Below, piece after piece: positions 19,656-64,000 of a stretch of DNA of 64,000 bases. The stretch covers positions 857,451-921,450 of the forward strand of contig OY970386.1 in assembly GCA_963719465.1 (NCBI GenBank), read 5' to 3'. The stretch comes from an uncultured Chloroflexia bacterium. Its GTDB lineage: Bacteria > Chloroflexota > Dehalococcoidia > DSTF01 > JALHUB01. The notes under the pieces are model-generated. The model was given only the letters and a program-made list of their open reading frames with translations, did not search any database and had not been told where the DNA came from. Position 1 is the stretch's first letter; each line of letters begins with the position of its first letter. Made by a program: the position numbers and the translations under genes.

Positions 19656-19674
19656 GTGAAGATTTCGTGAAGAA
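19656..19674. promoter_or_regulatory. Direct repeat GTGAAGATTTCGTGAAGAA, candidate regulator binding site
   Basis: Near-identical GTGAAGACTTTATGAAGAT occurs at 28651-28669. Both lie about 81 nt upstream of the paralogous regulator starts. Confidence 0.4.
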
Positions 19675-26614: not shown

Positions 26615-26616
26615 CG

Positions 26617-35333: not shown

Positions 35334-35538
35334 GCTTCCACCTCCGGAGACTCGTTCGGTAACGGGAGTTATCGCTGGTGCGGGATCATAGCCTCGTCGC
35401 GACGCTAACTCGAAGAGGGCTGGCCACCGGGTTGTAGGCTATACTATCGTTATCGCGTTGTCAATAGCGCGGGCGGCAAAAACGGCAGCACTACGCCGAG
35501 GAGCGTCCGGCTGGTAAAATCGGGGCGAATCGGGCAGC

Positions 35539-40607: not shown

Positions 40608-41774
40608 TTAATCAGACCCGAGGCCTTCCTCAATTCTCTGAACCAACTCTCGCGCATAGAACGTTCGCCCGCGTTTCCCGGCGCTGATCTCTTCCACGAT
40701 TCCTGCCTCGGCGAGATTAACTAACGCTTTGGCTGCAGATGGATATGTAATCCCCAGCGCCGACATCGCGAGGGGCACCGTCAATACGGGCGATTGGAAC
40801 AGAATGTCGACGAGCCTGATCGTGGATCGGGAAGCCCTGGCGTCATAAAGCTGGCGCCGATATTCATCTTGAAGCCCCAGTATGCTGCGTGAGCGTCTTA
40901 TGGCATCCAACGATTGCTCGGCGACACCGCGCAAGAAGAAGCGCAGCCACGTCCCCCAGTCTCCGCGCTGGCTGACTGTCAGAAGACCTTCGTAATACTC
41001 GTTTCGATGGGATTCGAAGAACGCGCTGAGGTATAACAATGGCTGGCAAAGGTGCTCGCGGGCAACGAGGAATAGCGTCACCAACAATCTGCCGACGCGA
41101 CCGTTTCCGTCCAAGAACGGATGGATGACTTCGAACTGATAGTGCATCAGGGCACATTCGACTAGCGGCGGAAGGCGGGAAGGAGAATTGAGAAACTGCT
41201 CCCAATCGGTGAGCAACGTTGCCATGTCACTTGGCGGAGGCGGGACAAACGTAGCTTCGTTTAGCTTGCACCCGGGCGCCCCGATCCAGTTCTGACTCGT
41301 TCGGAATTCGCCGGGCGTATGATGCTCGCCTCGTACACCTCGGAGCAATTGCTCGTGCACTTCACGAACCAGTCGGGTGCTCAGGGGCAACTCCTTGAGA
41401 CGTCGCAAACCGTATTCCATGGCTCTGACGTAGTTGGATACTTCACGGACGTCAGGGGAACCCACCGTTTCCTTCCCTGCCTCGAATTGGAAGAGCTCGG
41501 AAAGGGAGGCCTGCGTTCCCTCGATCTTTGAGGAAAGGACGGCTTCACGTCGCGTGAAAGGAACAATCAGCAGGCGGGGATTCGGCAACGTCTCGCCCAT
41601 GCCGTTCAGGGTACCGAGAGCTCGGTCGGCTTCCGACAGGCTATTGACAGTTTCCTCCGCCAGGCTTAGAGAACGAGGCAATGGTCTTGGGATGAATGCC
41701 GAATAGCCCGTTGGCTGGCGACGAACGTCGCCTGTGGAGCTACTAGCGAAATCCTCTGCTCTCATCGTCTTCAC
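40608..41774 (-). CDS. Fic-family protein (AMPylase-type) with a C-terminal wHTH-like region
   Basis: Fic motif HPFLDGNGRVGRLL. Visibly lower GC than the flanks. Confidence 0.85.
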   Translation of the reverse strand: MKTMRAEDFASSSTGDVRRQPTGYSAFIPRPLPRSLSLAEETVNSLSEADRALGTLNGMGETLPNPRLLIVPFTRREAVLSSKIEGTQASLSELFQFEAGKETVGSPDVREVSNYVRAMEYGLRRLKELPLSTRLVREVHEQLLRGVRGEHHTPGEFRTSQNWIGAPGCKLNEATFVPPPPSDMATLLTDWEQFLNSPSRLPPLVECALMHYQFEVIHPFLDGNGRVGRLLVTLFLVAREHLCQPLLYLSAFFESHRNEYYEGLLTVSQRGDWGTWLRFFLRGVAEQSLDAIRRSRSILGLQDEYRRQLYDARASRSTIRLVDILFQSPVLTVPLAMSALGITYPSAAKALVNLAEAGIVEEISAGKRGRTFYARELVQRIEEGLGSD

Positions 41775-42853: not shown

Positions 42854-44251
42854 GTGAGACTACGTCTTCTTATCGCGGCCGCAGCGATCCTTGCGATTGT
42901 CCTGGTCGACGGACAGTCGAAGCCCAGAGAATCGGCGGCAGCGGGACGCGGCGAAATCGACGGGTCGGTCCTGAGCTCGGAGCCGGCCTCCGGTCGTTCA
43001 GCGCTTGCCGGCTGGCGGGTGCTGCTGGGGACGAACGAATGCAAGCTGGTGGCGACGGCGACGACGGACGCGAAGGGAAGATATCACTTCTCCAACCTCG
43101 ACGCCGGACCATACATCGTTGAAATCGCGAACGACCAGCCGTACGGGCAAGGCTGGGAGCTGCTTCAGCCTTCGGCGCGAACGGGCGTCTGCTACGGGTG
43201 GGGCGCAAGCGTCATCGAACTGGAAGCGGGCGGCAAGGTCACGGCCGAGGACATCATCGTGCAGCTGTTCGACGATCCACGGGGCTACTACGGTAGCGTG
43301 TTCGGAGACTCGAACGGGAACGGCCAGTGCGACGCGGACGAGGGGCCGTTCGTCACGACCATGCGACAGTATGAATCGGACACCAGCCTGGAATTCGCGA
43401 CCGACCTGGAGGGCGACTACCGCATGATAGAGAGCGAGACACCGATACCGGGAAACCCGGTCAAGCCGCCGCTCAGCCTCCAAACCTGTCCCGCGCACCC
43501 TGTCGAAGGGGACAACGCGAACGGCTATCGCATTACGGCGCCGGTGCCCGATTCGTGCGGCGAGTACGGCTGCGTCGCACAGGTCAGTCAGCAGGTCTTT
43601 CGTTGCGAGGACTCTGGTTTGTATCTGGTCGACCCGAACCCATCGTACTTCATCGGCGAAGTGTGGAAGAACGCGGCTCCCGTCAAGGCGGGAACACCGG
43701 TCACAGCCTGGATCGGCGATACGGATTGTGGCGAGGGCTACGTCTACAGTATCGGTTCAACTTCTCGCTACGAAGTCATCGTCCGCTCGGCAAGCACGAG
43801 GGCAGGCTGCGGAACGGAAGGCGCTGAGGTGCGCTTCACGCTCGGCGGCGAGAGCACACCGACTGTCGGCTACTGGCACGTGCGCACGATGCAGAACATC
43901 CAGCAGGTGGTGGACATCGTCATAGGACCACCGTTCGCCGTCTACGATGTCCAATTGCCGCCCGAGCCAGGGAACAAGACCCTCCAGGCGTACATCGGCG
44001 ACACACTTTGCGGCGAAGCGACCGCATCTGGAGGCGGAATGGTCCCCAACTTGCAGGGGAGGCTCGTCGTTCCGCCCGAAAGCCTCCGAGCGGGCTGCGG
44101 CAGGGATGGGGCGACCGTGCGCTTCGTGGTCGACGGCGTCATGTATTCGCCAACGCAGCCGTGGACGCCGGGGACGCATCGCGTTCAGTTAACGGCCGCG
44201 CCGACGGTCTCGCTGCCCAGCACCGGTTCGGGCGGCCTTCTTCCTCAATAG
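42854..44251 (+). CDS. Secreted protein with a CarboxypepD_reg/SdrD-B-like beta-sandwich that ends in LPSTGSGGLLPQ
   Basis: Signal peptide. TTDAKGRYHFSNLDAGPYIVEI. The C-terminal LPxTG-like motif has no TM helix after it. Confidence 0.65.
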   Translation: MRLRLLIAAAAILAIVLVDGQSKPRESAAAGRGEIDGSVLSSEPASGRSALAGWRVLLGTNECKLVATATTDAKGRYHFSNLDAGPYIVEIANDQPYGQGWELLQPSARTGVCYGWGASVIELEAGGKVTAEDIIVQLFDDPRGYYGSVFGDSNGNGQCDADEGPFVTTMRQYESDTSLEFATDLEGDYRMIESETPIPGNPVKPPLSLQTCPAHPVEGDNANGYRITAPVPDSCGEYGCVAQVSQQVFRCEDSGLYLVDPNPSYFIGEVWKNAAPVKAGTPVTAWIGDTDCGEGYVYSIGSTSRYEVIVRSASTRAGCGTEGAEVRFTLGGESTPTVGYWHVRTMQNIQQVVDIVIGPPFAVYDVQLPPEPGNKTLQAYIGDTLCGEATASGGGMVPNLQGRLVVPPESLRAGCGRDGATVRFVVDGVMYSPTQPWTPGTHRVQLTAAPTVSLPSTGSGGLLPQ

Positions 44252-47221: not shown

Positions 47222-47948
47222 ATGCGCTTGCTGCCGGTATTGATTTGCTTTCTGGCCGTGACGTTCGCGTCCTGTGGCGGAGGCGGGGGCGGCGCGACGG
47301 CAACACCCGGCGCGACCGGCACCGTTTCGCCAGAGGCGCACGAGACGGCGGAAGCGTCTATTCCCGACCCGTTCGCAAGCTTGAGCAGCTATGACTACGA
47401 CATCAAAGTGCTTGCCGACGGACAGCTCCAGGTGGAGATCCAGGGCGCGATCCAGGGATCGGACCGGATTGAGGCGAACTTCATTGTCAGCGGCTCGACC
47501 ACGCCGATCGAATCGGTGATCATCATTGGCAGCCAGGCCTGGGTAAACGACAGCTCCACCGACAATCAGTGGGCTATGACCGACCTCGGGACGGCGGAGA
47601 ACGTTCTGGCGGGGGCGCCTCCGAAGGACGTTCTGGAACCTTTTGCCGGTCGACAAGTTGCTCAGCGGGGCGAGCGATCTGGGTGAGGAGAACGTAAACG
47701 GCGTAGCGTCGCATCATTTCCAGGTCAGCAGCCTGAGCTCAGACGCGCAGAGCACGCTGTCGACGTTCCTTGGGGTGACGGTCACCTCGTCGGGCACGAT
47801 CGACATCTGGCGCGCGGACAACGGGAACTGGCCGGTGAAGGCAAAGATCACGGGGCAGTTCCAGAACGGCGAGTCAACGTCCACGGCTGAGGTCGATTGG
47901 GACGTCACCAATGTCGACAACGCGACGGTGCAGGCGCCGCCGCAATAG
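47222..47948 (+). pseudogene. Lipoprotein, copy 1, apparent 1-nt insertion at 47627-47633
   Basis: Lipobox LAVTFASCGG. The frame is lost after ...PPKDV. The +1 frame reads WNLLPVDKLLSGASDLGEENVNG..., matching copy 2 (KDIWQLLPVDQLVGGANDLGEENVNG). Confidence 0.85.
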
Positions 47949-48078: not shown

Positions 48079-48804
48079 ATGCGCTTGTTGCCGGTATTGA
48101 TTTGCTTTCTGGCCGTGACGTTCGCGTCCTGTGGCGGAGGCGGGGGCGGCGCGACGGCAACGCCCGGCGCGACGGGAACCGTTTCGCCAGAGGCGCAGGA
48201 GACGGCAGAAGCGTCCGTTCCCGACCCGTTCGCAAGCTTGAGCAGCTACGACTACGACTTCAAGGTGCTTGCCGACGGAGAGCTCCAGGTGGAGATCCAG
48301 GGCGCGATCCAGGGATCGGACCGGATTGAGGCGAATTTCATTGTCAGCGGCTCGACCACGCCTATCGAATCGGTCATCATAATCGGCAGTCAGGCCTGGA
48401 TGAACGACAGCTCGACCGACGACCAGTGGGCCATGACGGACGTGGGCACGGCGGGGAGTGTTCTGGCGGGGGCGCACCCGAAGGACATCTGGCAGTTGCT
48501 GCCGGTCGACCAACTGGTCGGCGGGGCGAACGATCTGGGCGAGGAGAACGTAAACGGCGTAGCGTCGCATCACTTCCAGGTCAGCAGCCTGAGCTCAGAC
48601 GCGCAGAGCACGCTGTCGACGTTCCTTGGGGTGACGGTCACCTCGTCGGGCACAATCGACATCTGGCGCGCCGACAACGGCAACTGGCCAGCTAAGGCCA
48701 AGATCACCGCGCAGTTCCAGAACGGCGAGTCGACCTCTACGGCTGAGGCCGATTGGGACGTGACCAATGTCGGCAGCGCGACGGTGCAGGCGCCGCCGCA
48801 ATAG
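48079..48804 (+). CDS. Lipoprotein, copy 2 (intact, 241 aa), function unknown
   Basis: Signal peptide with lipobox FASC. Full-length paralogue of 47222..47948. Confidence 0.8.
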   Translation: MRLLPVLICFLAVTFASCGGGGGGATATPGATGTVSPEAQETAEASVPDPFASLSSYDYDFKVLADGELQVEIQGAIQGSDRIEANFIVSGSTTPIESVIIIGSQAWMNDSSTDDQWAMTDVGTAGSVLAGAHPKDIWQLLPVDQLVGGANDLGEENVNGVASHHFQVSSLSSDAQSTLSTFLGVTVTSSGTIDIWRADNGNWPAKAKITAQFQNGESTSTAEADWDVTNVGSATVQAPPQ

Positions 48805-51290: not shown

Positions 51291-51857
51291 CTAGAACACC
51301 AACGGGATGAGCCGCTTCGTTCGGCGCTTGTACTCGGGATAGGCTATCGGGAAGTGGCGCGAGAGAAGCGCCTCCTCCTGCCGGGCGCGGGTCAGGACGC
51401 CGAGTACGCAGACGGCGAAGATGATGAGCACCCACACGTTGGCGATCCATACGACCACGCCCACGAGCATCAGCAGCATGCCGGTGTAGAGCGGGTGACG
51501 CACGTAGCGATACGGCCCGCGCCTGATGAGCTCGTGGCCCTCCTTGAAGACGGTACGCGAACTCCAGTTGCCGCCAAGCACCGTCCGCGCCCAGAAGGCG
51601 ACAACGAGGCCGGCGAGGACGATGGCGTCGGCTAGCACAGCCCTCCAGGCCGGCCTGTGGCTGAAGAAGTGTCCCAGAGCGGTGCCGGGGAAGACACGCC
51701 CTATGACCAGCATAAGAATCAAGACGAGAAGAAGGATCGGAAAACGAGGATAGCGAACTCTCTCCAGCGTCCGCTTCTGGCGAAAGGCGGCGACCAGGAG
51801 GTAGGCGTAGAAGGCGACGTAGCAGGCGATTATGAAGCCGCCGGCGAACTTGTCCAT
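51291..51857 (-). CDS. Isoprenylcysteine carboxyl methyltransferase (ICMT)-family membrane methyltransferase
   Basis: HELIRRGPYRYVRHPLYTGMLLMLVG signature. Multiple TM helices. Confidence 0.75.
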   Translation of the reverse strand: MDKFAGGFIIACYVAFYAYLLVAAFRQKRTLERVRYPRFPILLLVLILMLVIGRVFPGTALGHFFSHRPAWRAVLADAIVLAGLVVAFWARTVLGGNWSSRTVFKEGHELIRRGPYRYVRHPLYTGMLLMLVGVVVWIANVWVLIIFAVCVLGVLTRARQEEALLSRHFPIAYPEYKRRTKRLIPLVF

Positions 51858-52108
51858 ACTTCTATTCTGCGACGTCGTGAATCCGAGCGCCAGCGGCGGC
51901 GCAGCCCGGCGTGGAGCGGCGGCCAGTCGGGGCGATAGGCGTAGATGAGGACGGCGCTCAGAAGGAGGAGAGCCATCAGGCAGACGCATGAGGCGATCTC
52001 GACGGGCGTGGCGCTGAATTCTTCGTCGATACCGTTGTAGAGGAGCCAGAGGACGAAGAGAAGGTCGCCGGCGATCACAGCGTATCTCTTCCTGCCGGCG
52101 ATGCGCAT
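51830..52108 (-). CDS. Small two-TM membrane protein
   Basis: MRIAGRKRYAVIAGDLLFVLWLLY...CVCLMALLLLSAVLIYAY. 8 nt after the EVE gene stop. The tail overlaps the ICMT start. Confidence 0.45.
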   Translation of the reverse strand: MRIAGRKRYAVIAGDLLFVLWLLYNGIDEEFSATPVEIASCVCLMALLLLSAVLIYAYRPDWPPLHAGLRRRWRSDSRRRRIEVWTSSPAAS

Positions 52109-52598: not shown

Positions 52599-52620
52599 AT
52601 GGTGCTCCCTGCTCTCCAGT

Positions 52621-52708
52621 TGGCGGAGAGGGTGGGATTCGAACCCACGGACCCCGAAAGGTCACACGCTCTCCGGGCGTGCCTGATCGGCCACTCCAGC
52701 ACCTCTCC
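52621..52708 (-). tRNA. tRNA-Ser (type II, long variable arm), anticodon GGA by position, CCA encoded
   Basis: Reverse complement GGAGAGG TG CTG GAGTGGCCGAT CAG G CACGC CCGGAGA GCGTG (variable arm) GTGGG TTCGAAT CCCAC CCTCTCC G CCA. Position 33 reads C instead of U. Confidence 0.8.
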
Positions 52709-52719
52709 GCCTGAAGGAG

Positions 52720-52835
52720 CCGAGACTGGAAGGTCTCGGCTACGTTATTCGGTTGTTCTCTGCGCTGACGCGCCTAGACTGGAAACTCCCGGCTACGATG
52801 TTGGAGGCGCGGGCAAGATGCCCGCGCTACGTGAT
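52720..52835 (+). repeat. Cluster of three REP-like hairpin + CTAC elements between the two tRNA genes
   Basis: CCGAGACTGGAAGGTCTCGG CTACGTTA (52720-52748). A degenerate copy at 52773-52800. GCGCGGGCAAGATGCCCGCG CTACGTGA (52807-52835). Confidence 0.6.
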
Positions 52836-52855
52836 GCAATTTTGCCGCGAGAGTC

Positions 52856-52945
52856 TGGCGGAGAGGGAGGGATTCGAACCCCCGGTCCCGTTGCCAGGAC
52901 ACCGCTTTTCGAGAGCGGCACCATAAACCACTCGGACACCTCTCC
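52856..52945 (-). tRNA. tRNA-Ser (anticodon CGA), CCA encoded
   Basis: Reverse complement GGAGAGGTGTCCGAGTGG... with anticodon stem CCGCT/AGCGG and loop CTCGAAA. Long variable arm. TTCGAAT T-loop. Confidence 0.85.
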
Positions 52946-52994
52946 GCCGGGTGCCAATGGCAACGTAGATTATAGCACAGCAGCAGGTCGCTGC

Positions 52995-53726
52995 TCAGGA
53001 AAGAGGCGGAAGCGTTTGGACAGGTGCGGGCGTGGGCGTGGTATCGGGGACGCGGTCGCCGACGACGATGAGGCGCTTGTCGTACTGGCGGGTGGCGCTG
53101 TTGAAGGTGCCGCAGCAGGTGATGAGGGTGACTTGCTCATTGGGAGTGGGTCCGACGATCTGGTTGATGGGCGCGCCATCGACGGGGATGCACTCAAGGG
53201 AGGAGACCGCATAGTTATAGACGGCGCCGTCGGCAAGGTGGACTTCGATCATGTCGCCGGGATTGAGTTTGTTCAGATACCAGAAGACGGCGGCGCCGAC
53301 GTTATGGTAGTCGACGTGGCCGGCGAAGACGGCGTTGCCGCCGGTGCCGGGCCGGGCACTGAAGTCGTACCAGGCGACGTCGTAAGCGTTGCCGGGGGAT
53401 TGCATGACCCCGTTTTCGTCGAGGCCGAGGGCGACGAGGGGGGCGTCGACCTTGGCATTCGGGATCACGAGCCGGACGGGCGGCGCGTCGTCTGGCGTGG
53501 CAACAGCCGGCGACGGAGTCCATAGCTGCCGCGGAACTGTGAAGCCAGGAACCGTGCCGGGGCCGCTGCGCTCGGTGTTGCCGATTACGCCGCTGGCCGA
53601 CAGCCCGAAGAGTATGCCGGAGGCGAGGAGCGCCGCTATGCCCAGCGCCATCACGATTATGGAAAGGCGGCTGAGGCGGTCTGAAGTGGAGTGGGTGGCC
53701 GGTCGGAACTTCAAAGGCGTTGGCAT
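52995..53726 (-). CDS. Sortase-family transpeptidase (class F-like), copy 1
   Basis: N-terminal TM. VFAGHVDYH (His), TLITCCGTF (Cys), KRLIVVG (Arg). Confidence 0.8.
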   Translation of the reverse strand: MPTPLKFRPATHSTSDRLSRLSIIVMALGIAALLASGILFGLSASGVIGNTERSGPGTVPGFTVPRQLWTPSPAVATPDDAPPVRLVIPNAKVDAPLVALGLDENGVMQSPGNAYDVAWYDFSARPGTGGNAVFAGHVDYHNVGAAVFWYLNKLNPGDMIEVHLADGAVYNYAVSSLECIPVDGAPINQIVGPTPNEQVTLITCCGTFNSATRQYDKRLIVVGDRVPDTTPTPAPVQTLPPLS

Positions 53727-53788
53727 TTCCTGCTAGTCGGTTTCTATCATTCTATCGGAGCTTTGTCGTTCGCACTAGAGAGGGTCGC

Positions 53789-54583
53789 TCAGTTGACGCG
53801 CAGGCCGCGGACCACGAGGCGGTGGTCGTAGTTGTGGGTGGCGGGGTTGAACGTTCCCTGGCAGGTGACGATGGTTATGATGTCCTGGCCGGTCTTGGCG
53901 ACGTAGGTGCTGAAATCGTCGTCGTCGCCGATCTGCTTGCTCCATTGGACGGAATAGAGGATCGGCGTGCCGTCCGCCAGGTCGACCTCGATGATGTCGC
54001 CGGGGCCGACGAGGTGGAGGTTCCAGAAGACGGCCTCGTAGTTCGGATGGTAGTCGACGTGGCCGGCGAAGACGGCGTTGCCGCCAGAGCCAGGGGAGCC
54101 GCCCATGCCGGGCCAGGCGGTGAAGTCATACCAGACAACGTCGTCTTTGCCGTTGGGGACGCCCATGACGCCGTCGGTACCCATAACGCGGATGTTGACG
54201 GGGGCGTCGACGCCGATGGAGGGGATCTTCATGCGCATGCCGCTGCTGGCGGCCGGTCCCTGGGAGGACGAGCTTCCGCCGGCAGGGCCGGGCGTGGGCG
54301 TGGCTAGGGCGGCGGCCCACTCGGCGATGGCGGCCGGGTCGATCGTCGCCGTGGCGGTGGGCGTGAGCGTTGAGTCGGGAGTGGCGGTGCTGTTGTCCGC
54401 AAGGACGTCGCTGCCGGAGGAGGAGCCGGGGGAAGCGACGGCGACAAGAGCGATGAGGACAGCCACGTAGACAGCGGCGACGCCGCTCACGAGGAAAGCG
54501 CCGCGTGGGTAGCGTCGGTAGAGTCCGACGAACTGGTCGCGGCGCTGCTTGAGCGCGATTATCAGCCTATGCGAACGGCCCAT
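53789..54583 (-). CDS. Sortase-family transpeptidase (class F-like), copy 2
   Basis: N-terminal TM. VFAGHVDYH, ITIVTCQGTF, HRLVVRG. Confidence 0.8.
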   Translation of the reverse strand: MGRSHRLIIALKQRRDQFVGLYRRYPRGAFLVSGVAAVYVAVLIALVAVASPGSSSGSDVLADNSTATPDSTLTPTATATIDPAAIAEWAAALATPTPGPAGGSSSSQGPAASSGMRMKIPSIGVDAPVNIRVMGTDGVMGVPNGKDDVVWYDFTAWPGMGGSPGSGGNAVFAGHVDYHPNYEAVFWNLHLVGPGDIIEVDLADGTPILYSVQWSKQIGDDDDFSTYVAKTGQDIITIVTCQGTFNPATHNYDHRLVVRGLRVN

Positions 54584-55230
54584 ACTATCCGCCTATCATT
54601 ATACTGGCTTGTGGTGGAATTAAAGCTACCAGCGCAGGTTATCAGGGTTAGCGACTCCTGCGGCGTGGAAGCAACGATCTCGTTGAAGGCCGTGGAGGAC
54701 GGATCGACGACGCGGTTGGACTGAGTGGAATAGGTATACTGGCTGCCGTCCTCGAGACGAAGGGTAATCTGGTCACCCTGCTTGAGGTCGTCGAGATTGG
54801 CGAACACGGCCGGGCCATAGTCATGGTAATCGACGTGCCCCGCCAAGACGGTGTTGCCGCCGTCGCCGGGGCTGCCCCCGAAGCCGGGAAGGGCGGAGAA
54901 GTTGTAGTAGACGACTTGCTCGGGGCCATCCGGCGACGGCATGCGGCCGTCGGCGTCCACGGCGCGAGAGACGACGGGCGCGTCAATGCCGATGGCGGGG
55001 ATGACGAGCCGGTCGACGGGATCGGGTGTGGCGGTCGAGGTGGGCGAAGGCACGGGGGAGGAGAAGGCGATGTTGGAGATGCTTTCGTTGCCGGTGGCGG
55101 GATCGTCAACGTGGGCGAGGGCGACGAGCAGGACGAATGCGCCGGCCGCGGCGAGGGCCAGGGCCGAAGCCAGCAGGGGGCTCCAGCGGGGCAGGCGACG
55201 GGGGATTCTGGGACCTCCACCTCCACACAT
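54562..55230 (-). CDS. Sortase-family transpeptidase (class F-like), copy 3
   Basis: N-terminal TM. VLAGHVDYH, LTLITCAGSF, RRIVWAVR. Confidence 0.8.
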   Translation of the reverse strand: MCGGGGPRIPRRLPRWSPLLASALALAAAGAFVLLVALAHVDDPATGNESISNIAFSSPVPSPTSTATPDPVDRLVIPAIGIDAPVVSRAVDADGRMPSPDGPEQVVYYNFSALPGFGGSPGDGGNTVLAGHVDYHDYGPAVFANLDDLKQGDQITLRLEDGSQYTYSTQSNRVVDPSSTAFNEIVASTPQESLTLITCAGSFNSTTSQYNDRRIVWAVRIG

Positions 55231-55239
55231 GTTGCACCT

Positions 55240-55989
55240 CTAGCTTATGCGCACGGCCCAGACGACACGACGCTCGTCGTAGGAACGGCTCGTAGAGTCG
55301 AAGGTGCCGGCGCATGTGATCATGGTGAGCGATTCCTGCGGGGTTGAGGCGACGATCTGGTTCCAGGAGGTCGAGGCGGGGTCGACGACGCGGTTCCACT
55401 GGACGGTGTAATGATAAGAGCTGCCGTCATTGAGTTGAATGATGATCTCGTCGCCTTCGGCAAGCTTTCCAAGGTTCCAGAAGATGGCCGGGCCGTAGTC
55501 ATGGTAGTCGACGTGGCCGGAGAGAACGGTGTTGCCACCGACGCCGGGCCTACCGCCGAGGCCGGGGAAGGCGGAGAAGTCGTACCAGACGACGTCGTTA
55601 GGTCCGTCGGGGTTGGGCATGTCGGTCGAGCCGTTGGCGGCGGGTGTGACGACGCGCTCGGAGAGGACGGCGTCGACGTTGATGGACGGGATTATGAGGT
55701 GGTCGCCGCCACTGCTAGCGCCCGGAACCGGCGCACTCGGGTTGGTGCCGGATACGCCGCTGCTGTTCTGGCGGGCAGTCAGCAGGCTGGGGTCGAGCTG
55801 TTGCGCCTGGTTGATGCCTTCGTCGAGAAGGCCGGCGGAGCTCGCGGTGGGACTGCCGCCTGTCTTGGCGCTACTGCCGCCGCCGCTTCGGGCCACGCCG
55901 ATTGCGACGATGGCGATGACGAGGAGGACGACGACGGGCACGCCGAACAGGAGAAGGCGACGCGGTAAGGCAATTCGGTTCATCTGCAT
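55240..55989 (-). CDS. Sortase-family transpeptidase (class F-like), copy 4
   Basis: N-terminal TM. VLSGHVDYH, LTMITCAGTF, RRVVWAVR. The second ATG (55983) has better RBS spacing. Confidence 0.8.
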   Translation of the reverse strand: MQMNRIALPRRLLLFGVPVVVLLVIAIVAIGVARSGGGSSAKTGGSPTASSAGLLDEGINQAQQLDPSLLTARQNSSGVSGTNPSAPVPGASSGGDHLIIPSINVDAVLSERVVTPAANGSTDMPNPDGPNDVVWYDFSAFPGLGGRPGVGGNTVLSGHVDYHDYGPAIFWNLGKLAEGDEIIIQLNDGSSYHYTVQWNRVVDPASTSWNQIVASTPQESLTMITCAGTFDSTSRSYDERRVVWAVRIS

Positions 55990-56243
55990 ACCTCTTGGAT
56001 GAGAGCTCTATCCTCCGCCACCCTGTCTACCCTTCCTTCAGAGGCGGATGAACAGGTAGGCCCAACGATCCGGCTTGGCGCTCGCCGTCCACTATGGGAA
56101 CGGCGAAGGGCTGATTCAATTTTAGCGCTGGCAGCGCGATGGTCAAGCACGGCGGCGCGTGCTCAGCGGCGCGCACGGCTATGCTGCGTCGCTCAATTGT
56201 GCCAACTTCATTCACCTTTGAACTCATTCTTGCTTGAGAGTCG

Positions 56244-56283
56244 CTGGGGGCCCCGATTGCTCAGGGCCCCCAGGGTTTTTGTT
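56244..56283 (+). terminator. Strong intrinsic-terminator-like hairpin, oriented on the + strand
   Basis: CTGGGGGCCC (10-nt loop) GGGCCCCCAG followed by GGTTTTTGTT. No annotated + strand gene lies upstream. Confidence 0.5.
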
Positions 56284-56304
56284 CACTAAGCTCGCGGTTA
56301 CGAC

Positions 56305-57916
56305 CTACGGGAGGTAGCCGCCGTCACCGGTCTTCGGTGGGGTGACGCCCGCTCCGCTGGGGGCGACAGCGCCTGGCGGGGCGGCAGTCGGAGGCGCCGG
56401 AGCGCAGGAAACGAGGGTGTTGGTCTCGATGTCGGTGGTCGACGTATCGACTCGCGTGACCTTGAGGTCATCGTTCATCGTCAGCGTCTGGTCGAGGACG
56501 GTTGCGATAACCGTCACTCCAGCCGTGACGCCGGACAGAGGCGTGACCGTCGTCTTGGCGACGCCGTTGGCGTCGGTTGTGGCGACGATCGGCTTGGCGG
56601 CGCCCAGCGCGACCACGTCGAATCGCACCTGGTTGCCGACCGGGACGGGCTTGCCGTCGGAGTTCAGCACTGTGGCATCGACTTCAGCGCCCGTGACGCC
56701 GTCGCAGGTGATCTGCGGCGGTGTGGCCACCGTGATGGTGTTCGGGCCGCCGATGACGGTGAGGTCAACCCTGTCATCCGGGCTGAGGACGTTGGTCACG
56801 TTGTCAGAGGTGATATCGGTGAGCGGGGTGGCGACCACGCCCGCGCGAACGGTAGACGTGCCTGCGTCCTGGCCGCAGCCCAGGTTGAAGGCGGCGGTCA
56901 CCTTGCCGCTGGCAAGGCTGACCGAATGCATGAGCTCGAAGTCAGCCTTCACAGGGGTAACGTCCTGTTCACCAAGGTTGGTTGACAGGGCAACCTTGTC
57001 GTCCTTGGTGGAGAACCAACCTACCCAGAGGCCTGTCAGGTCTGTCCCGTCATCGTCAGCGACGGTGGCGAGCAGGCCGGTGACGTTCCGGCAGGCCAAC
57101 TTCGCTGTTGAAGCCGGCGGTGTCGGTGTAGGTGGGCAGCTCGCAGTTGTTGACCGGCGTGTTGAAGTCCGTGTTCTCGCTCTCGATGGTCGTCTTGGGA
57201 ACGGCCTGGAGGGTCACGCTGTCTTGCGCTCCCACGACGGTGTAGTCCAGTGTGGCGTCGACGCCGGACTGGGTGGTGACTGCCTGCGCGTCGCCCCGGT
57301 CCAGGGTGTTGCCTCCCGTGTTGCTCCCCGAGTAGAGGAGGTCAACGACCACGCCGTCGCCCTTGGTGCCGTCTGCGTTGCAGTCTTCGTCGGCGAACGG
57401 GCACTTGTTCTGAGTGGAGGCCAGCGTTGATGTTGCATCGACGGCCGGTGAGGTGGAGAGCCAGTCACCCTGGTCCGCGTCCTCTGTCAGAAGGTCGTCG
57501 TTGGAGACCATCGTGAGGACCCACATGGACTGGCTGTTGAATGCGACGTCGAAGACGGCAGGCGGCGTCGCAATATTTGTGCACGTTGATCCTCCCGGGG
57601 TGATACAAGTGGCGTCGGTAGCGTCCTCGCCCAGCTGGGCTGCGCTGGCGTTGACCAAGTCGGAGTAGGTGTCAACATCGTTAACGTTGCCGCCCAGGTC
57701 ACTAGCCAGCTGTTTCAGCATGGTCGGGCTCTCGAGAGCGTAGCAGGGGGCTATGCTGAAGCCGTGCTGGCCAAGAAGGGTGGCACATACGTCGGGGTTG
57801 AAGGCGATTATGTCCGTTGGTTTGGCTTGCGCCTTGCTCTGGTGGAATGATGCGCCGGCGACGCCGATGACGAGGGCCAGGCTCATCAGACCTGCTAGTA
57901 TTGCAAACTTCTTCAT
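56305..57916 (-). pseudogene. Secreted surface protein with a bacterial Ig-like (Big_1/invasin-like) domain, apparent 1-nt insertion at 57082-57088. Ends PPKTGDGGYLP
   Basis: Signal peptide MKKFAILAGLMSLALV. Paralogue of 58347..60041. Frame lost after ...FNSEVGLP and the other frame continues NVTGLLATVADDDGTD.... Big-like ITCDGVTGAEVDATVLNSDGKPV. Confidence 0.8.
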
Positions 57917-58285
57917 TCAGGAATCCTCCTTGTTCCGGTGCATTTGTACTTCGGTGTCTTCTTCTCTTTCCAGGTCCTTGTTCCGATCTGTCTGGCATTC
58001 GCTTCCTGCGTCGCCCTCGGCCGAGACTTATTCGACGACGCCGAAGACGACACGCTAGCTTCGCGGAACCTTCGTCGTTGCGATACCTCCTTTCCTTGGC
58101 CCAGTCCGCGTTCCCTGCCCACCGCGACGTCCCGTTCGCGTTCCGGCGGGCTGCGGCATCTTCGAGGCAGGCGCGATTACTCTCTGGCGCTGCCTCCCAG
58201 GCTTGTGCTGATGGTTATAACGTTCCAGGAACGAAAAGGTTAATGGTTGTTACGAAGATTGGCTTGATTGCTTTTGGCTTACGGC

Positions 58286-58314
58286 GATCCCCCTCCCGTA
58301 TGGGGAGGGGGATC
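58286..58314 (-). terminator. Perfect 12-bp hairpin downstream of 58347..60041
   Basis: GATCCCCCTCCC (5-nt loop) GGGAGGGGGATC, 33 nt past the stop. No clear U-tract. Confidence 0.45.
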
Positions 58315-58346
58315 GCGTTCGGTCAGGTTTTGTCTTGTTTCTCTGC

Positions 58347-60041
58347 CTAGGTCTTCCGCCTGCGGAGGGCGAGGCCGGAGCCGATTAGCAGGATGGCGAT
58401 GGCGCCCAGCGGCAACGCCACGGGCCACGATGCCGGTCTCCCATCGCCGGTGCCGGTCTTTGGCGGCGCGATGACAGCGCTGGGAGCGCCTGCGGGGGCG
58501 GCTCCCGGCAGCTCGCCGATGGTGGCGGGATTTTGCTCACAATTCACCAGGAACGACTGTGTGAGCCCTGACGCCACGAACTTAAGGGGAACCGGCTCCG
58601 GCGTGATGATTGGCGCGGGCGTCGAGACAGGGTATGGGGTAGCAACAGGCGTACCGGCCGGCGCGGGCGTGTCCGTGGGCGGCAGCGGAGTGAACACGGG
58701 CGTAGGCGTCGGGCCCTTGACGACGTGGCGCATCCATGTAGCCTGCACGAGGACGCCGTTGATTGCGCCGGAGAGCGGTGTGAGAACGGTGGTGGAGGCG
58801 CCGCTCGTCGTCCTGGCGTCTATCGGGTTAGCGCTGCCGAGCGCCTTGACGCTGAAGTGGACGAGGTTGCCGTTGACGACCGCCTTGCTGTTGTCATCGG
58901 TCAGGTTGGCGGTTATGGTTGAGCTGGCGGTGCCGTCGCAGACGAGGCTGGGCGGGACTGCCGCCAGCGACATCGCGACCGGTTCGCTCTGGACGGGCAG
59001 GGTTATCGAGGCGCTGCGTCCGGTAGGCGCATCGAGGTCGGCTCCAAGATGCGAGGGGAGAACGTCTGCGCCAGTAGTTATGGTGGCCGTTATCTTGACG
59101 TTCCCCGTTTTGCTGCCGCCGCAGAGCACTTCCGGCGCGCCCAGGCCGAGAGCCGCCAGGTCAAGGCTCGGGGTAAGGCCGACCCGAAGCGGCGGCGGTT
59201 TGACAAAATCGGCCTTGTCGGTGTCGTCCACGGACCAGAGTATCACAGCGCCGGTAATCGGCGTATCGTCGCTATCGTAGACGGTAGCGTCGAGCGGCGT
59301 AGTCTCAGGCTCCGTGACAGACTCGAGGAAGGTGGGCGTGTCGCTGAACAGCTCGCAAGTAGGAGCGCCTGTCTGGATGGCGGTGTCGAAGGCCTTTAGG
59401 GAGACATGGTCAGGCTCCCCGACTATCTTGTAGTCAGCCGATACCTCGCTGCCGCCCTGGCGCACGCGGAACTGGCCGTCGCCGCGGGGGGCTCCGTTAG
59501 GAATCCAGCGGGCGACTACCACGCCGTCCCCAACATTCGGCGTCTTGTCACAGTCGTTGTCACTGAAGTCAACGCCCGGGTCGCCGGCTTTGCCGCAGGT
59601 GATGCTGGATTTGTTATTGCCGGCGGTGGTGAAGATGCCGTTGTCAGCGTAGAAGCCGACGGTATCGTCATTGCTTACGAAGGCAACGACGAAGACGATG
59701 CCATCCTTATCGTGCACCTGGCCGGCGTCCATGTCGATCTTGGTAAAGTCGGATGGCTGCGGGTTGGTTGGATCGCCGTTGAGAACCCTAACCAGCGTGT
59801 CGAAGCTGGGCTGTTGGTCCAAAGTCTGGCAGGTAGTCACACCTGCGGCCCCATCCCCGTCGTCGATTGTTTTGCTGTCGTTCCAGTCGACGTTGCCGGT
59901 AAGGAGGATGCAGTTGGTCTGCGTTATGGTTATGACGTCCGTAACAGTGGCGTGCGCCGCGGGCGGCCGGAAGTTGACTCCGAAGAGCACCAGGGCCGCT
60001 ATCGGAAGCGCCAGCAGCAAGCCGATCTTCCTGAACTTCAT
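58347..60041 (-). CDS. Sortase-substrate-like surface protein with a Big_1-like domain
   Basis: Signal peptide. LVCDGTASSTITANLTDDNSKAV. PT-rich linker. C-terminal PPKTGTG..., TM AIAILLIGSGLAL, RRRKT. Confidence 0.8.
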   Translation of the reverse strand: MKFRKIGLLLALPIAALVLFGVNFRPPAAHATVTDVITITQTNCILLTGNVDWNDSKTIDDGDGAAGVTTCQTLDQQPSFDTLVRVLNGDPTNPQPSDFTKIDMDAGQVHDKDGIVFVVAFVSNDDTVGFYADNGIFTTAGNNKSSITCGKAGDPGVDFSDNDCDKTPNVGDGVVVARWIPNGAPRGDGQFRVRQGGSEVSADYKIVGEPDHVSLKAFDTAIQTGAPTCELFSDTPTFLESVTEPETTPLDATVYDSDDTPITGAVILWSVDDTDKADFVKPPPLRVGLTPSLDLAALGLGAPEVLCGGSKTGNVKITATITTGADVLPSHLGADLDAPTGRSASITLPVQSEPVAMSLAAVPPSLVCDGTASSTITANLTDDNSKAVVNGNLVHFSVKALGSANPIDARTTSGASTTVLTPLSGAINGVLVQATWMRHVVKGPTPTPVFTPLPPTDTPAPAGTPVATPYPVSTPAPIITPEPVPLKFVASGLTQSFLVNCEQNPATIGELPGAAPAGAPSAVIAPPKTGTGDGRPASWPVALPLGAIAILLIGSGLALRRRKT

Positions 60042-60141
60042 AGCTCGCTTCCCCTTTCTTCTTGTCCCGATGCCCCCCGCGGCTCTGGGCCGTTCGGCGG
60101 GCTGTTTCGGCTATCTAGCGAATGCATGTCCGGTCATTGTC

Positions 60142-61221
60142 CTAGCGTCGCGTCCGCGCACGGCGAAGATAGACCGCTCCGCCGGCCAGGGAGATTGCAG
60201 CCGCGCCGAGAATGATCCAGGCAAGGGCTATGCTCCATGTCGTACCTGTCGAGGCGTCGCCGGTATTGGGCGGCGTGACGCCCGCGCCCGCTCCGCCGCC
60301 GGAAGGCGCCGGTGGCGGCGGCGCGCCTCCGCCTCCACCACCTCCACCGCCGCCACTGGGCGCAGCAGCCGTGGCGCTGGGGGTAATGGTTGGTGTTGGT
60401 GTATGGGCCCTTGGCGTCGGTGTGCAGGTGGGAAGACCCTCAAAACCGCAAACGGGCGTCGAGGTCGGGCCCACGGTCGGAACCGGAGTTGAGGTGTTCA
60501 CCGGGGTGGGGGTGTTGCCCCCCTTAACATCGGTGCCACCTATGCACTGGCCTGGGGTATTGGCGCAGTCGATGTACTCCGTGCCGCCCTGGTCGGCAAC
60601 GGTATTCGTACCTACGAATGAGAGCGTATCCGTGCCGCCATTAATCGCTGCGAATTCGATCTCTGCGATGGGCTCAGGCTGGTTGACAGGTAGCGCTGGA
60701 GATTGAGTGGAAATACAACTCAGGTGAGCGCGGCCGATGCCTGCTCCACCGGCGTCGAGGCCGCAACTCGGCCCGAGATTGCCGGCGCTGGTGCAGTCCC
60801 AGCCGCTGCCGAGGCTCACGCCCCCGAAGGTGGTGGTGCCGGCATTGGCATCAGGGTTTGCGTCACGGCAGTGCGGGTCTGTATCGGAGTCCAGACAATC
60901 CACCCCTATTGGCACGCACTGGTTGAGCGTGTCGTCATACTGGAGCGAGATTTCAAGGCTAGCGGGTGCGGCAGGCGCATTCTCCAGACAAACCGCTACC
61001 CAGTAGTCGCCGCCACCGGGCGTATCGTTTCTTGACGCGTCGATGGGGTTGCAGGGGCCGCTGCCGTTCGTGGGGTTCATGTCGAGCACGAGAACGGGGG
61101 TCGGATCCGCCTGTCCCGCAAAGGCACGTTGTGTTCCGCCGCTGAATCGGGGAACGACGATTATTGCGGCGACAAGAATGCCGCCCAACAATGCCAAAGC
61201 CGTCCAATGCCAACCTTTCAT
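60142..61221 (-). CDS. Sortase-substrate-like surface protein with one cohesin-like domain
   Basis: MKGWHWTALALLGG signal/TM. LEISLQYDDTLNQC...IAEIEFAAINGGTDTLSF. PT and poly-Gly linker. PPNTGDA..., TM, RRARTRR. Confidence 0.7.
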   Translation of the reverse strand: MKGWHWTALALLGGILVAAIIVVPRFSGGTQRAFAGQADPTPVLVLDMNPTNGSGPCNPIDASRNDTPGGGDYWVAVCLENAPAAPASLEISLQYDDTLNQCVPIGVDCLDSDTDPHCRDANPDANAGTTTFGGVSLGSGWDCTSAGNLGPSCGLDAGGAGIGRAHLSCISTQSPALPVNQPEPIAEIEFAAINGGTDTLSFVGTNTVADQGGTEYIDCANTPGQCIGGTDVKGGNTPTPVNTSTPVPTVGPTSTPVCGFEGLPTCTPTPRAHTPTPTITPSATAAAPSGGGGGGGGGGAPPPPAPSGGGAGAGVTPPNTGDASTGTTWSIALAWIILGAAAISLAGGAVYLRRARTRR

Positions 61222-61458
61222 CGGTTCCCTCACTTCCTGCAGAATTCTAGCTGACTGGAGCCGCGCAGCAGCGGAATATGATTGCACATGGTCTTCCGCC
61301 AGGTCCTAAGGATATACAAGGAACCGCAAACGTCGGGCCGATGCAACGTCTGAACTGCAACCAGCCTCTTACGTATAACGCATGAACGGCGGCAAAGTCA
61401 ACGCTGAAGCGAGATTTTTTTCAGTTTCCTGCCCGGAACCGTGAAATGGGACATGGAA

Positions 61459-61486
61459 AGAGGGCGACGATTTCTCGTCGCCCTCT
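61459..61486 (-). terminator. Perfect 12-bp hairpin just downstream of 61509..63464
   Basis: AGAGGGCGACGA TTTC TCGTCGCCCTCT. On the minus strand it is followed by TTCCATGTCCCATTTC. Confidence 0.5.
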
Positions 61487-61508
61487 TGGGCTCGTTCAGT
61501 CTTCAGGA

Positions 61509-63464
61509 TTAGCGCAGGACGCGCCTTCGCCTGAGGCCGCGGTAGACGCCGCCAACAAGGACGCAGGCGCCTGCCCCGGAGAAGAGGGCGAGCAGCCAGG
61601 GGAATCCACTGCCGTTAGGTCCGCTGCCGGTGCCGGGCGGAAGAAGCGATGGCCCCGCGCCACCGGAAGGGGTAGCCGTCGCAAGCGGCACGGGCGTGGA
61701 CGGCGGCGCGAGCGTTGGAGGAGTCGTCGCGGTCTCCGTCGGCGTCTGCGTCGAGTTGCGGTGGTGCTCCTGGTTTTGCTTGATGTCGGTCGCGCCGAGG
61801 CAGGTCATCAAATAGGGGTTCCAGGAGGGGGCCACATTCAACTCGCCTCCAGGAGGAGTGACGCCGCAAGCGCCGATAACAACCTCGTCCGGCCCCCGCA
61901 CCAACAGTGACTGAATGGTGACGGTGTCGGTGCCGGCGGCCAGCACCTTGAGGGTGACGGCCGCGAGGGCGATGTGGTCAATGAAAGTACCGTCCACGAG
62001 CTCCGTCTTGACGTCGTCGGTCCCGTCTCTTGTACAGGCAATCGTGGCGGTGCCGGTGGTGCCGGTGGTGTCGGTGGCGCCGGTGACGCCCGTACCGCAT
62101 GTGGGAGGATCTTCGATATCGCAATTCCAGTCGGAGCCGAGGTTGTTGTTAACGTCGACCGGTGTTTCTCCGGCATTGGCGTGCGGGTTGGAGTCGAGGC
62201 AACCCTGGTCGCTATCCGAGCATGTTGTGCTCACGCACTGGTCGAGCCCCCCATTGTAGGTCAAGTTCAGCTCGAAGGCGTCGACTTCAGCAGGAACGTT
62301 GCCGAGGCAGACGGCCAGGGTGTGAGTATCGCCAACGGTCTCTGTGGTCTGCCGGTCGATGGCGTTCTGGTCGCAGGGGCCGGTGCCGTTGGTCAAGTTC
62401 TTGTCGATGTAGGCGTAGATAGTTGGAGTCGGCGTAAAGGTCGACGTGGACGTCGGCGTGAAGGTAGACGTCGGCGTGAAGGTAGACGTGGCCGGTAGTG
62501 GCGTCGGCGTTATGGTCGGCGTGTCCGTCGGGAGAGGCGTCGGCGTTATGGTCGGGGTGTCCGTCGGGAGAGGCGTCGGCGTTATGGTCGGCGTGTCGGT
62601 GGGCGTGCTTGTCGGTGTCTCAGTTGGCGTGGGCGGGTCGTAGACGCCGTTGAAGCACCGGACGGTGTCGCCCTGGTTGAGAGGAGGGCAGAGGATCGGC
62701 TCGAGCCCGGCCACGTCGCCCTCGGTCACGTTGTTAAGGGTGAAGGTGTCCTGGCCGGTTCCCAGGGCCTTGAAGGTGATTTCCGCTATGGGCGAGGAAA
62801 CGTTGTCGCCAGTCGCCAGGGTGGGAGCCTGGGTACTGAAGCAGATCGCCTGAGCGATAGCTTCGTTTCCGGTGCCGTTCCCGGTGTCACACAGCGGTCG
62901 GGTGGTCTGCGATGCGGTGCAGTCCCAACCCGGGCCCAGGTTCGTGCCGCCGAAAGTCGTCAAACCGGCGTTGATGTCCGGGTCGCCATCCTGCAGTGCG
63001 CGTCGGTAGAGGCGTCGTCAGTGCATAGAACGGGCGGGTCAATGCACTGGTTCAGCGTCTTGTCGTAGTCCAGTTCGAACTGGAACGACGCCGGCGGACC
63101 GTTCTTGCCACTACTCGCTGACGCCGGCGCTGGTAAGACAGACGGCAACCTTGTAGGTTGTGCCGACTGTATAGGTCGCCGACGGGTCAACGGGGTTGCA
63201 GGGGCCGGTGCCGTTGGTCACGTCCATGTCGAGTTCCAGGTGGACGTCACCGGCGCCGCAAACGCCGTCGTTGTTGATGTCAACGCCGGGAGTGGCACAG
63301 GGGGAAGTACCCACATCACCCACGACGACGCCATTGCCAGCGACGTATCCGGCGGCGACGACCTTCACGGTCGACGAGCCGCTGCCGCCGAAGGGAGCGA
63401 AGGCGACGACAAGAGCGACGGCAACCCCCAGCAAGACCAGCACTGCCCAGAACCTGCGTTTCAT
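61509..63464 (-). pseudogene. Sortase-substrate-like surface protein with two cohesin-like domains. Frame broken twice (insertion at 63118-63150, deletion near 62990)
   Basis: Three ORF pieces (63111..63464, 62960..63190, 61509..62963) align colinearly with 60142..61221 (LDMDVTNGTGPCNP.., FELDYDKTLNQC.., HC(R)DGDPDINAGLTTFGGTNLGPGWDC). C-terminal PPGTGSG..., TM, RRRRVLR. Confidence 0.75.
62500..62607. repeat. 36-nt tandem repeat x3 encoding the TPTITPTPLPTD linker. An adjacent 18-nt repeat (62441-62492) encodes STFTPT
   Basis: GGCGTCGGCGTTATGGTCGG(C/G)GTGTCCGTCGGGAGA repeated head to tail. Confidence 0.85.
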
Positions 63465-63651: not shown

Positions 63652-64000
63652 TCAGGGGGCAGGGCACACTTGCGCCCCTATGGCCTGCATGACTATAGCG
63701 ACGCGGTACAAGTCGCCGACATTGATGGCACCATCCCTCAAGACGTCGCGCGTTGGTGTGTAGCCGTACTTGCCATCGTGGTTGCCGTCGGTCTTCGCAA
63801 GGTAGATATGCGCGCCCGCTTTATGAGCCGCGGTCAGAGGGTAGTTAACACCTCGTGTAACGGTCATCGTGTCTGGAGAACCATCTGTGAGTCCTGTCAC
63901 CCTCATGGATTCGTCGTCGATCGCTATCACATTGTTGGGCGCCACGCTTGAGAGTTTGCTCTGGTCGCTGATGGCGACCGTGGTCTGGGTGTCGGTGCCA
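63652..64000 (-). CDS. C-terminal part of a larger secreted protein (N-terminus beyond the window) with a dockerin/EF-hand-like terminal segment
   Basis: Open frame runs to the window edge. ...TDGNHDGKYGYTPTRDVLRDGAINVGDLYRVAIVMQ resembles a Ca-binding dockerin half-site. Confidence 0.45.
   Translation of the reverse strand, partial: GTDTQTTVAISDQSKLSSVAPNNVIAIDDESMRVTGLTDGSPDTMTVTRGVNYPLTAAHKAGAHIYLAKTDGNHDGKYGYTPTRDVLRDGAINVGDLYRVAIVMQAIGAQVCPAP

Follow-up and report, generated by a model that had tools for sequence, protein, structure and literature searches.

Four tandem class F-like sortase genes beside putative surface substrates in an uncultured Dehalococcoidia lineage

Why would a bacterium keep four sortase paralogues side by side, next to several secreted proteins that carry sorting signals, when one of those proteins ends in a sorting motif with no membrane helix behind it? 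The question is raised by a 64,000-nucleotide stretch of DNA (hereafter the window) from an uncultured Chloroflexia bacterium of the Dehalococcoidia (Chloroflexota; assembly GCA_963719465.1, contig OY970386.1, positions 857,451 to 921,450). Its 3' part holds four sortase genes (S1 to S4) and four genes for secreted proteins, the invasin-like A and D and the cohesin-like B and C. The observation holds up: the locus is conserved, and it has apparently not been described before. It varies a theme that is well understood, the helix-less tail being its most interesting element, and is best read as a module passed on vertically within a lineage of Dehalococcoidia from soil, peat and sediment. As argued below, the balance of the evidence leans towards a dedicated surface-display module in which separately conserved sortases would divide the work among classes of substrate and forms of signal.

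The sortase array

The four sortase genes are consecutive on the minus strand (52995-55989) and are transcribed in the order S4, S3, S2, S1:

55240-55989, minus strand: sortase S4, 249 amino acids (aa), first gene of the array, 315 bp 3' of gene D
54562-55230, minus strand: sortase S3, 222 aa, 52% identical to S4
53789-54583, minus strand: sortase S2, 264 aa, TIVTCQG around the catalytic Cys
52995-53726, minus strand: sortase S1, 243 aa, final gene of the array, TLITCCG around the catalytic Cys

Gaps of 9 bp (S4/S3) and 62 bp (S2/S1) and an overlap of 22 bp (S3/S2) separate or join neighbouring genes. Each product bears an N-terminal hydrophobic helix, at about residues 12-31 in S4, and each passes the gathering cut-off of Pfam PF04203 (26.6 bits; S1 79.5, S2 64.6, S3 84.9, S4 76.3). 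Three motifs are common to all four, GHVDYH with the catalytic His, T(L/M/I)(I/V)TC with the Cys and R(R/L)(I/V)V with the Arg. They place the triad His/Cys/Arg at residues 159/226/240 in S4, 132/199/213 in S3, 175/241/255 in S2 and 137/204/218 in S1, with the Arg always 14 residues C-terminal of the Cys, and the triad is invariant in a 38-sequence sortase alignment. The fold was modelled for S4 only, with AlphaFold2 (mean predicted local distance difference test score, pLDDT, 81.6). The model matches the sortase crystal structures 4d70, 2xwg, 9m5i and 7f87 at E ~1e-9; its structural matches are class D, C, E and A sortases, with a target-normalised TM-score of up to 0.70. Because all four proteins score above the Pfam cut-off and retain an intact triad, and because the S4 model matches known sortase structures, S1 to S4 are read as genuine and apparently active sortases. 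A preliminary description of this DNA, made from the letters alone, had listed four N-terminally anchored minus-strand sortases with these motifs, and the open reading frames (ORFs), Pfam matches and triad positions bear it out.

The nearest class is class F. The NCBIfam class F model NF033748 gives 122.6 bits for S1, the most class F-like of the four, 101.8 for S3, 92.7 for S4 and 84.5 for S2, all short of its curated cut-off of 166. Every other class model reaches at most 46 bits for any paralogue (class C, 26-37 bits), so that class F is best by a clear margin. No class B model appears among the NCBIfam matches at E <= 0.01, and no class B structure among the 50 best structural matches of S4. 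A sequence search of the PDB returned marginal matches only (SrtE1 and one class C sortase) and no clearly closer class F relative. Orthologues 74% identical to these proteins carry the NCBI label 'class F sortase', although such orthologues themselves score only ~92-104 bits on NF033748. The earlier placement among class F-like enzymes is therefore kept in part: class F is the best class model (85-123 bits against <=46), but with all four below 166 bits the proteins are best called class F-like rather than members of the class.

The paralogues differ in detail. S1 lacks a 6-residue insert, PG(L/F/M)GG(R/S), that is present in S2, S3 and S4, and its C-terminus is a Pro/Thr-rich extension. Orthologues of S4 share a conserved segment ahead of the catalytic domain, at residues ~50-95 (window positions 55705-55840; GLL.EGI.QQQQLDPSLLA.RQ..SG.SGTNP.AP.PG), which AlphaFold2 models at pLDDT 62-93 and which S3 lacks; it could be a lid-like or substrate-selecting appendage.

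Related loci, searched for in part with the S1 alignment, are cited here by L numbers. Metagenome-assembled genomes from Danish soils (MFD), SPRUCE peat and other sediments, carrying the labels Dehalococcoidia bacterium or uncultured Chloroflexia, are the nearest relatives. Gene order and protein tails are repeated in more than 15 independent loci, so the arrangement is not due to chance. The order S4-S3-S2-S1 is found in L001, L003, L005, L006 and L007, of which all but L003, where the flank is different, lie in the same flank as the window locus (mnmA, ndk, tsaD, tsaE, thiL). By ORF count, with the groups unclassified there, four tandem sortases also occur in L009, L013, L014, L015 and L018. 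Paralogues are 36-52% identical and orthologues 53-85% (S3 53-74%, S2 54-73%, S1 64-77%); S4 orthologues stand first in every related array and S2 orthologues third in every four-gene array. On this pattern S1 to S4 are four old orthologous groups in fixed order. S3 is missing in the close relatives L041, L038, L040, L042 and L102, and both S3 and S2 are missing in L030; S1-like enzymes stand alone in some more distant metagenome loci. From these losses and lone enzymes, S4 and S1 look like a core pair to which S2 and S3 are accessory, and S3 would be a younger duplicate of S4. Distant loci (L020, L021 and nine metagenome contigs) hold three sortases in the order S3/4-like, S2-like, S1-like.

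Substrates and their sorting signals

The proteins that bear the signals are encoded as follows:

58347-60041, minus strand: substrate A, 564 aa; signal peptide, multi-domain immunoglobulin (Ig)-like rod, Pro/Thr linker, sorting signal
56305-57916, minus strand: substrate D, secreted and invasin/Big_1-like, a paralogue of A, ending TPPKTGDGGYLP-stop
60142-61221, minus strand: substrate B, 359 aa; signal peptide, one Cys-rich cohesin-like domain, Pro/Thr/Gly linker, sorting signal
61509-63464, minus strand: substrate C; signal peptide, two Cys-rich cohesin-like domains with a TPT-repeat linker between them, sorting signal
42854-44251, plus strand: short-tailed protein of a second family, 465 aa, secreted, SdrD_B/CarboxypepD_reg-like, ending SLPSTGSGGLLPQ-stop

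A tripartite signal of motif, hydrophobic helix and basic tail is complete in A (APPKTGTGDG, membrane helix, RRRKT), B (TPPNTGDA, membrane helix, RRARTRR) and C (LPPGTGSG, membrane helix, RRRRVLR), and orthologues of B and C retain PPxTG together with the membrane helix and Arg-rich tail behind it. To the variants PPKTG, PPNTG and PPGTG of the window, relatives add SPNTG, PPRTG and PPSTG. D and the 42854-44251 protein carry the motif only; neither a hydrophobic helix nor a basic tail is encoded in any frame. D ends PPKTGDGGYLP and stops, no frame 3' of its stop holding a hydrophobic stretch, and the second protein, of a family unrelated to D, has the same type of tail, LPSTGSGGLLPQ-stop. The preliminary description had read the ends of A, B and C as PP(K/N/G)TG with a helix and an Arg-rich end, and that of D as PPKTGDGGYLP, and they read so here.

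The short tail recurs well beyond the window. Across 44 aligned homologues of A and D, whose overall identity is only ~30-70%, the C-terminal P-x-T-G-x-G-G hardly varies or does not vary at all (P527, T529, G530, G532, G533). The short form, with a stop 1-4 residues after GG(Y/F)L, is found in 33 of the 78 A/D homologues recovered (GGYLP, GGYLD, GGYLSGE, GGYLQGG and GGFLGP are examples); distant members of the family instead have (G/P)PDTG(N/S/T)GGYLGQD, some 10 more residues, a membrane helix and an Arg/Lys tail. Six full-length homologues of the 42854-44251 protein divide likewise, four (the window protein's own cluster included) ending PxTGSGG(Y/F/L)LP(Q/H)-stop and two carrying PxTG with a helix and Arg-rich end behind it. 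When 185,579 species genomes were scanned for the pattern P-x-TGDGGYLP-stop, 11 stretches came up, every one from a metagenome-assembled genome of Dehalococcoidia or 'Chloroflexia'; seven of them reach downstream DNA, and in all seven a sortase array follows. Conservation in two unrelated families, together with the array 3' of each extended stretch, indicates that the short tail has been selected as a portable C-terminal signal linked to these sortases and is not a truncation. That D's tail is a truncation or pseudogene artefact is excluded by its conservation in orthologues and in the 33 short-form homologues. A joint origin of the short tail and the S3 duplication was also considered. In the survey of upstream tails, filtered by composition against spurious high-GC ORFs, it had been favoured by the 11 three-sortase loci with a readable adjacent substrate tail, all of the helix-bearing GGYLGQD form, and it was rejected on finding GGYLP-stop or GGYLD-stop in L041 and L102 (S4-S2-S1) and L030 (S4-S1). 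We have not found the helix-less signal described, though no literature search was aimed at it.

A and D have weak profile matches, those of A (Invasin_D3, E 1.7e-4; Big_1, E 5e-3) and likewise those of D to Big_1/Invasin_D3 falling below the Pfam cut-offs. The AlphaFold2 model of A (pLDDT 83.5) finds its best PDB matches in invasin (1cwv), intimin (6tqd) and the surface-layer (S-layer) proteins SbsC, SbsB and EA1. The cohesin-like assignment of B and C is similarly distant. Pfam Cohesin PF00963 does not match B and matches C weakly (17.1 bits, E 0.0065, cut-off 24.1), while comparison by hhalign of the B family with a Pfam-positive cohesin protein of related loci (32.8 bits) gives a probability of 94.7% (E 6e-8). 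B most likely starts at 61221 (MKGWHW...) and not at 61287; the true start of C is the signal peptide at 63464. Profile, structure and hhalign matches thus support the earlier statement that secreted Big_1-like or cohesin-like proteins lie upstream of the sortases.

Beyond C a further gene runs off the window:

63652-64000, minus strand: 3' end of a gene orthologous to a dockerin-bearing secreted protein of related loci

The fragment ends ...DGNHDGK...DGAINVGD...CPAP and has no Pfam match, the window holding only the non-dockerin C-terminal end. Its orthologues lie at 927-2174 in L001 and 1146-2387 in L007; Dockerin_1 (PF00404) is above its cut-off of 22.9 in the latter (30 bits) and in L005 4714-7029. 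The Pfam-positive cohesin protein lies just beyond the dockerin gene in related loci.

Two of the substrate genes are interrupted. D is split by a 1-nt indel at ~57086 into ORFs 57056-57916 and 56305-57099, and C lies in three frames through 1-nt indels at ~63097-63120 and ~62991-62993 (ORFs 63111-63464 and 61509-62963). Both continue across the indels in another frame in perfect register with intact orthologues, which measure 432 aa (C) and 551 aa (D) in a related 2.28 Mb chromosome; intact C orthologues lie at L001 2355-3653 and L007 2572-4359. Other genes of the window are split too. In a lipoprotein-like tandem pair (MRLLPVLICFLAVTFASCGGGGG...) the copy at 47222-47948 (plus) is frameshifted into two ORFs and that at 48079-48804 (plus) is intact, and the C-terminus of a histidine kinase (16964-19123) reads out of frame, judged by eye from the translation. 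Related long-read metagenome-assembled genomes are fragmented likewise (L008, L102). Given the in-register continuation, the other split genes and the fragmented relatives, the indels in C and D are more likely residual long-read assembly errors than marks of real pseudogenes.

A different type of tail also occurs in the window, VGG(I/L)A(E/D)APD followed ~20 residues later by a membrane helix and then an Arg-rich terminus (RRRRG, RRRWRAK). Its carriers are two secreted proteins, at 175-1092 (plus) and 33192-35438 (minus), one with a bacterial TSP3 repeat and the other an S8 subtilase. The tail may be a separate sorting signal and is probably the 'VGGxAxAPD' of the preliminary description.

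Proposed function, alternatives and surrounding genes

The mechanism proposed for the module would run in three steps. The cohesin-like B and C and the invasin-like Ig rods A and D would be exported by Sec; the membrane-anchored class F-like sortases would then recognise the C-terminal (S/P/G)-P-x-T-G-x-G-G and cut between Thr and Gly; and the Thr carboxyl would finally be passed to an amine, with a peptidoglycan precursor as the most likely acceptor. Two types of signal would be served, the classical motif with helix and Arg-rich tail (A, B, C) and the short, helix-less form ending 1-4 residues past GG(Y/F/L)L (D and the 42854-44251 protein), and division of labour would be the likeliest reason for keeping four old paralogues together. 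It is the motif, the enzymes and their linkage that argue for sortase processing at Thr-Gly; from these we infer the cleavage site, the acceptor, the pairing of enzyme with substrate and the processing of the short tail. Dehalococcoides is not known to have a peptidoglycan acceptor. In the present lineage one is probably available, as the window encodes a class A penicillin-binding protein (19660-22260, plus; Transgly 191.7 bits, Transpeptidase 85.2 bits), from which the lineage appears to make peptidoglycan.

Several points weigh against a division of labour of this kind. The short-tailed substrate is present alike with arrays of four, of three (L041, L102) and of two (L030) sortases; with array size so variable beside the same substrate, S3 and S2 may be partly redundant, and a strict split of one enzyme to one substrate is unsupported. 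A Staphylococcus aureus sorting signal deprived of its hydrophobic domain leads to secretion without anchoring, which makes a helix-less substrate mechanistically awkward. Should the indels in C and D be real, both genes would be pseudogenes here. The genome outside the 64 kb searched may also encode a separate sortase for housekeeping or offer other acceptors.

A bolder extension of the surface-display reading, put forward tentatively and less probable than the module itself, would take P-x-T-G-x-G-G-(Y/F/L)-L-P-COOH as a new sortase signal that works without membrane retention. Soluble secreted donors, namely the D-type Ig rods and the SdrD_B-like protein, would be ligated by a dedicated class F-like sortase onto the wall itself or onto cohesin-like and Ig-like partners held in the membrane, giving a covalent multi-protein surface layer; the likeliest ligase for D would be S4, as it adjoins D wherever the DNA downstream of D is in view. 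If true, this would be the first defined physiological role of class F-type sortases. The conserved helix-less signal challenges the textbook need for a hydrophobic helix and charged tail, and the short tail, if processed, would show sortase capture of a soluble donor and could yield sortase/tag pairs for protein ligation.

A pilus-like arrangement, in which the sortases join the substrates to one another as a covalent polymer or hetero-oligomer, seems rather unlikely. Helix-less D might, for example, be loaded first, as the distal unit, onto an amine of A, B or C, themselves held in the membrane, and the product would in the end be attached to the wall by a last sortase, in the manner of the class C and housekeeping enzymes of Gram-positive pili. 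Such a scheme is suggested by the island-type layout of tandem sortases and several cognate substrates (compare the srtC arrays of group B Streptococcus, GBS), by the Gly-rich PxTGxGG, which recalls the LPxTGGxG that selects the pilin-specific sortase in Lactobacillus rhamnosus, by the fitness of a helix-less donor as distal subunit, and by the conserved, confidently modelled N-terminal segment of S4, which could act as a lid. The cohesin-like domains moreover end in a semi-conserved TD(I/V)K (GGTDVKG in B, GATDIKQ in C), whose lysine is the only one in B besides Lys2 of the signal peptide and could serve as acceptor amine were the substrates cross-linked. This lysine is, however, clade-restricted, and in the three-sortase loci L020 and L021 the B orthologues do not have it; the 44 aligned A/D homologues have no invariant or nearly invariant lysine at all, the feature for which the preliminary description had proposed a check. 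The model of A is that of an invasin/intimin/S-layer Ig array, with no pilin among its 50 best structural matches; the class C lid motif DP(F/W/Y) is unconserved in S4 orthologues (LDPSLL, LGREDL, IESADL); and the class F model scores far above the class C model. Positive evidence for the pilus-like polymer that had been suggested at the outset was thus not found.

That the paralogues are instead redundant, all four anchoring the same (S/P)PxTG signal in an array kept for dosage or condition-specific expression, is unlikely. Close relatives manage with three or two enzymes and unchanged types of substrate, and the silent quadruple deletion in Actinoplanes missouriensis (see below) shows that class F paralogues can be dispensable; yet the sequences around the Cys and the Cys-to-Arg loop are group-specific (AGTFDS, AGSFNS, QGTFNP, CGTFNS) and are kept where orthologues are only 53-67% identical, and the layout of three groups (S3/4-like, S2-like, S1-like) reaches much more distant loci. 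It is quite improbable that the helix-less tail is no sortase signal, D-type proteins being merely secreted or GG(Y/F/L)LP being read by another factor with PxTG as a relic, for although classical substrates need membrane retention and full-length signals exist of which the short form looks like a truncation (GPDTGNGGYLGQD, then a membrane helix and Arg-rich tail), a relic would decay, whereas P-x-T-G-x-G-G-(Y/F/L)-L is near-unchanged in 33 homologues that share only ~30-40% identity over the rest of their length, and again in another, unrelated family, 6-8 residues, enough for a leaving group, are kept after Thr-Gly, and each D-type gene with visible downstream DNA lies directly 5' of S4.

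Two genes lie directly 3' of S1:

52621-52708 and 52856-52945, minus strand: tRNA-Ser genes with anticodons GGA and CGA

A plus-strand ORF at 52599-53525 overlaps both tRNA-Ser genes and S1 and is spurious. At the Rfam gathering threshold, 52-64 kb holds no cyclic di-GMP or other riboswitch 5' of the substrates (compare C. difficile), and promoter and terminator scans gave output no better than that from shuffled sequence. An ICMT/PEMT-family membrane methyltransferase is encoded a few genes 3' of the array (51291-51989, minus), as in L001, L003, L006 and L007. It was considered as part of the system and set aside as synteny, being absent from the distant three-sortase loci while the whole flank is co-conserved.

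Elsewhere in the window a cobalamin riboswitch (2598-2733, plus; 68.9 bits) lies 5' of four genes in 2835-8398, probably a corrinoid uptake operon. They encode a secreted alpha-alpha-toroid (prenyltransferase/SQHop-cyclase-like) protein with a C-terminal membrane helix and Arg-rich tail, a CbiQ-like protein, a double ABC ATPase and an ECF S-component. At 8395-10715 (minus) a RACo-type reductive activator of corrinoid proteins near a B12-binding-domain protein points to a corrinoid-dependent methyltransferase system. LigD (with ligase, primase-polymerase and phosphoesterase domains) and Ku, encoded at 23837-27615 (minus), constitute bacterial non-homologous end joining. A Fic/DOC family gene (40608-41774, minus), which may have been acquired horizontally, occupies the one part of the window where GC is low (0.58 against ~0.65).

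Relation to known sortase systems

Literature searches in full text brought up no account of sortase systems from Dehalococcoidia or Chloroflexota, and the locus offers a first view of surface architecture, with invasin-like, cohesin-like and dockerin-bearing proteins, in an uncultured Dehalococcoidia lineage of soil and peat. The statement of the preliminary description that it knew of no such arrangement for this type of sortase stands to that extent, but the motif and the tandem arrays are each known on their own.

The motif has its precedent in Clostridioides difficile. Its SrtB motif is (S/P)PXTG, including PPKTG (PMC5118464, PMC4155245), and peptidoglycan anchoring is documented for the substrates CD2831, CD3246, CD2537 and CD3392 (PMC5118464, PMC4591827, PMC4155245, PMC5569036). 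The likeness extends to PPKTG letter for letter, with a membrane helix and basic tail behind it, so that the PPxTG signals, contrasted in the preliminary description with LPxTG, are confirmed but are not new as a motif. C. difficile has a single sortase, of class B, whereas the present locus has four and none matches class B models; the shared motif therefore looks convergent. The helix-less variant is not mentioned in the titles and abstracts of the C. difficile SrtB literature.

Sortase genes in tandem are the rule in class C pilus islands. The Streptococcus pneumoniae rlrA islet, the GBS islands PI-1/PI-2 and the L. rhamnosus spaCBA cluster share with the present locus tandem paralogues clustered with secreted substrates, and Gly-rich residues after TG help sortase choice there, as a comparable Gly-rich extension might here. 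S1 to S4, however, are not class C enzymes, the segment of S4 that could act as a lid has no conserved DP(F/W/Y) motif, and the substrates are invasin- or cohesin-like in place of CnaA/CnaB pilins, A and D having no conserved pilin-motif lysine. Cellulosomal scaffoldins anchored by sortase, such as Ruminococcus flavefaciens ScaE, combine cohesin-type modules with a C-terminal sortase signal, much as the cohesin-like B and C do, and are encoded beside dockerin-bearing secreted proteins, as in loci related to the present one. Against this likeness, B and C have cohesin-like domains that are Cys-rich, far diverged and short of the Pfam cut-off, the locus has no glycoside hydrolase, and the host belongs to the Chloroflexota and is not a Firmicute.

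A further comparison is with class F itself, that is, SrtF of Propionibacterium acnes (Cutibacterium) and the paralogues of Streptomyces coelicolor and A. missouriensis. These enzymes have in common with S1 to S4 an N-terminal anchor, a single catalytic domain and a His/Cys/Arg triad, and their hosts are likewise high-GC monoderms with several paralogues per genome. The physiological role of class F sortases is described as still unknown (mBio 2026, PMC13251363), and deletion of all four in A. missouriensis gave no phenotype. The known hosts are Actinomycetota, where the several class F genes of a genome are dispersed (at separate loci in A. missouriensis), whereas here the host is a chloroflexotan and the genes stand in tandem, adjoining putative substrates. 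P. acnes SrtF is reported to use LPXTG, a form seen here in one candidate unlinked to the array (LPSTG), while the putative substrates adjacent to the array bear (S/P/G)PxTGxGG. Compared with the class F systems described so far, the present locus pairs class F-like enzymes physically with their likely substrates, which makes the pairs of enzyme and substrate directly testable.

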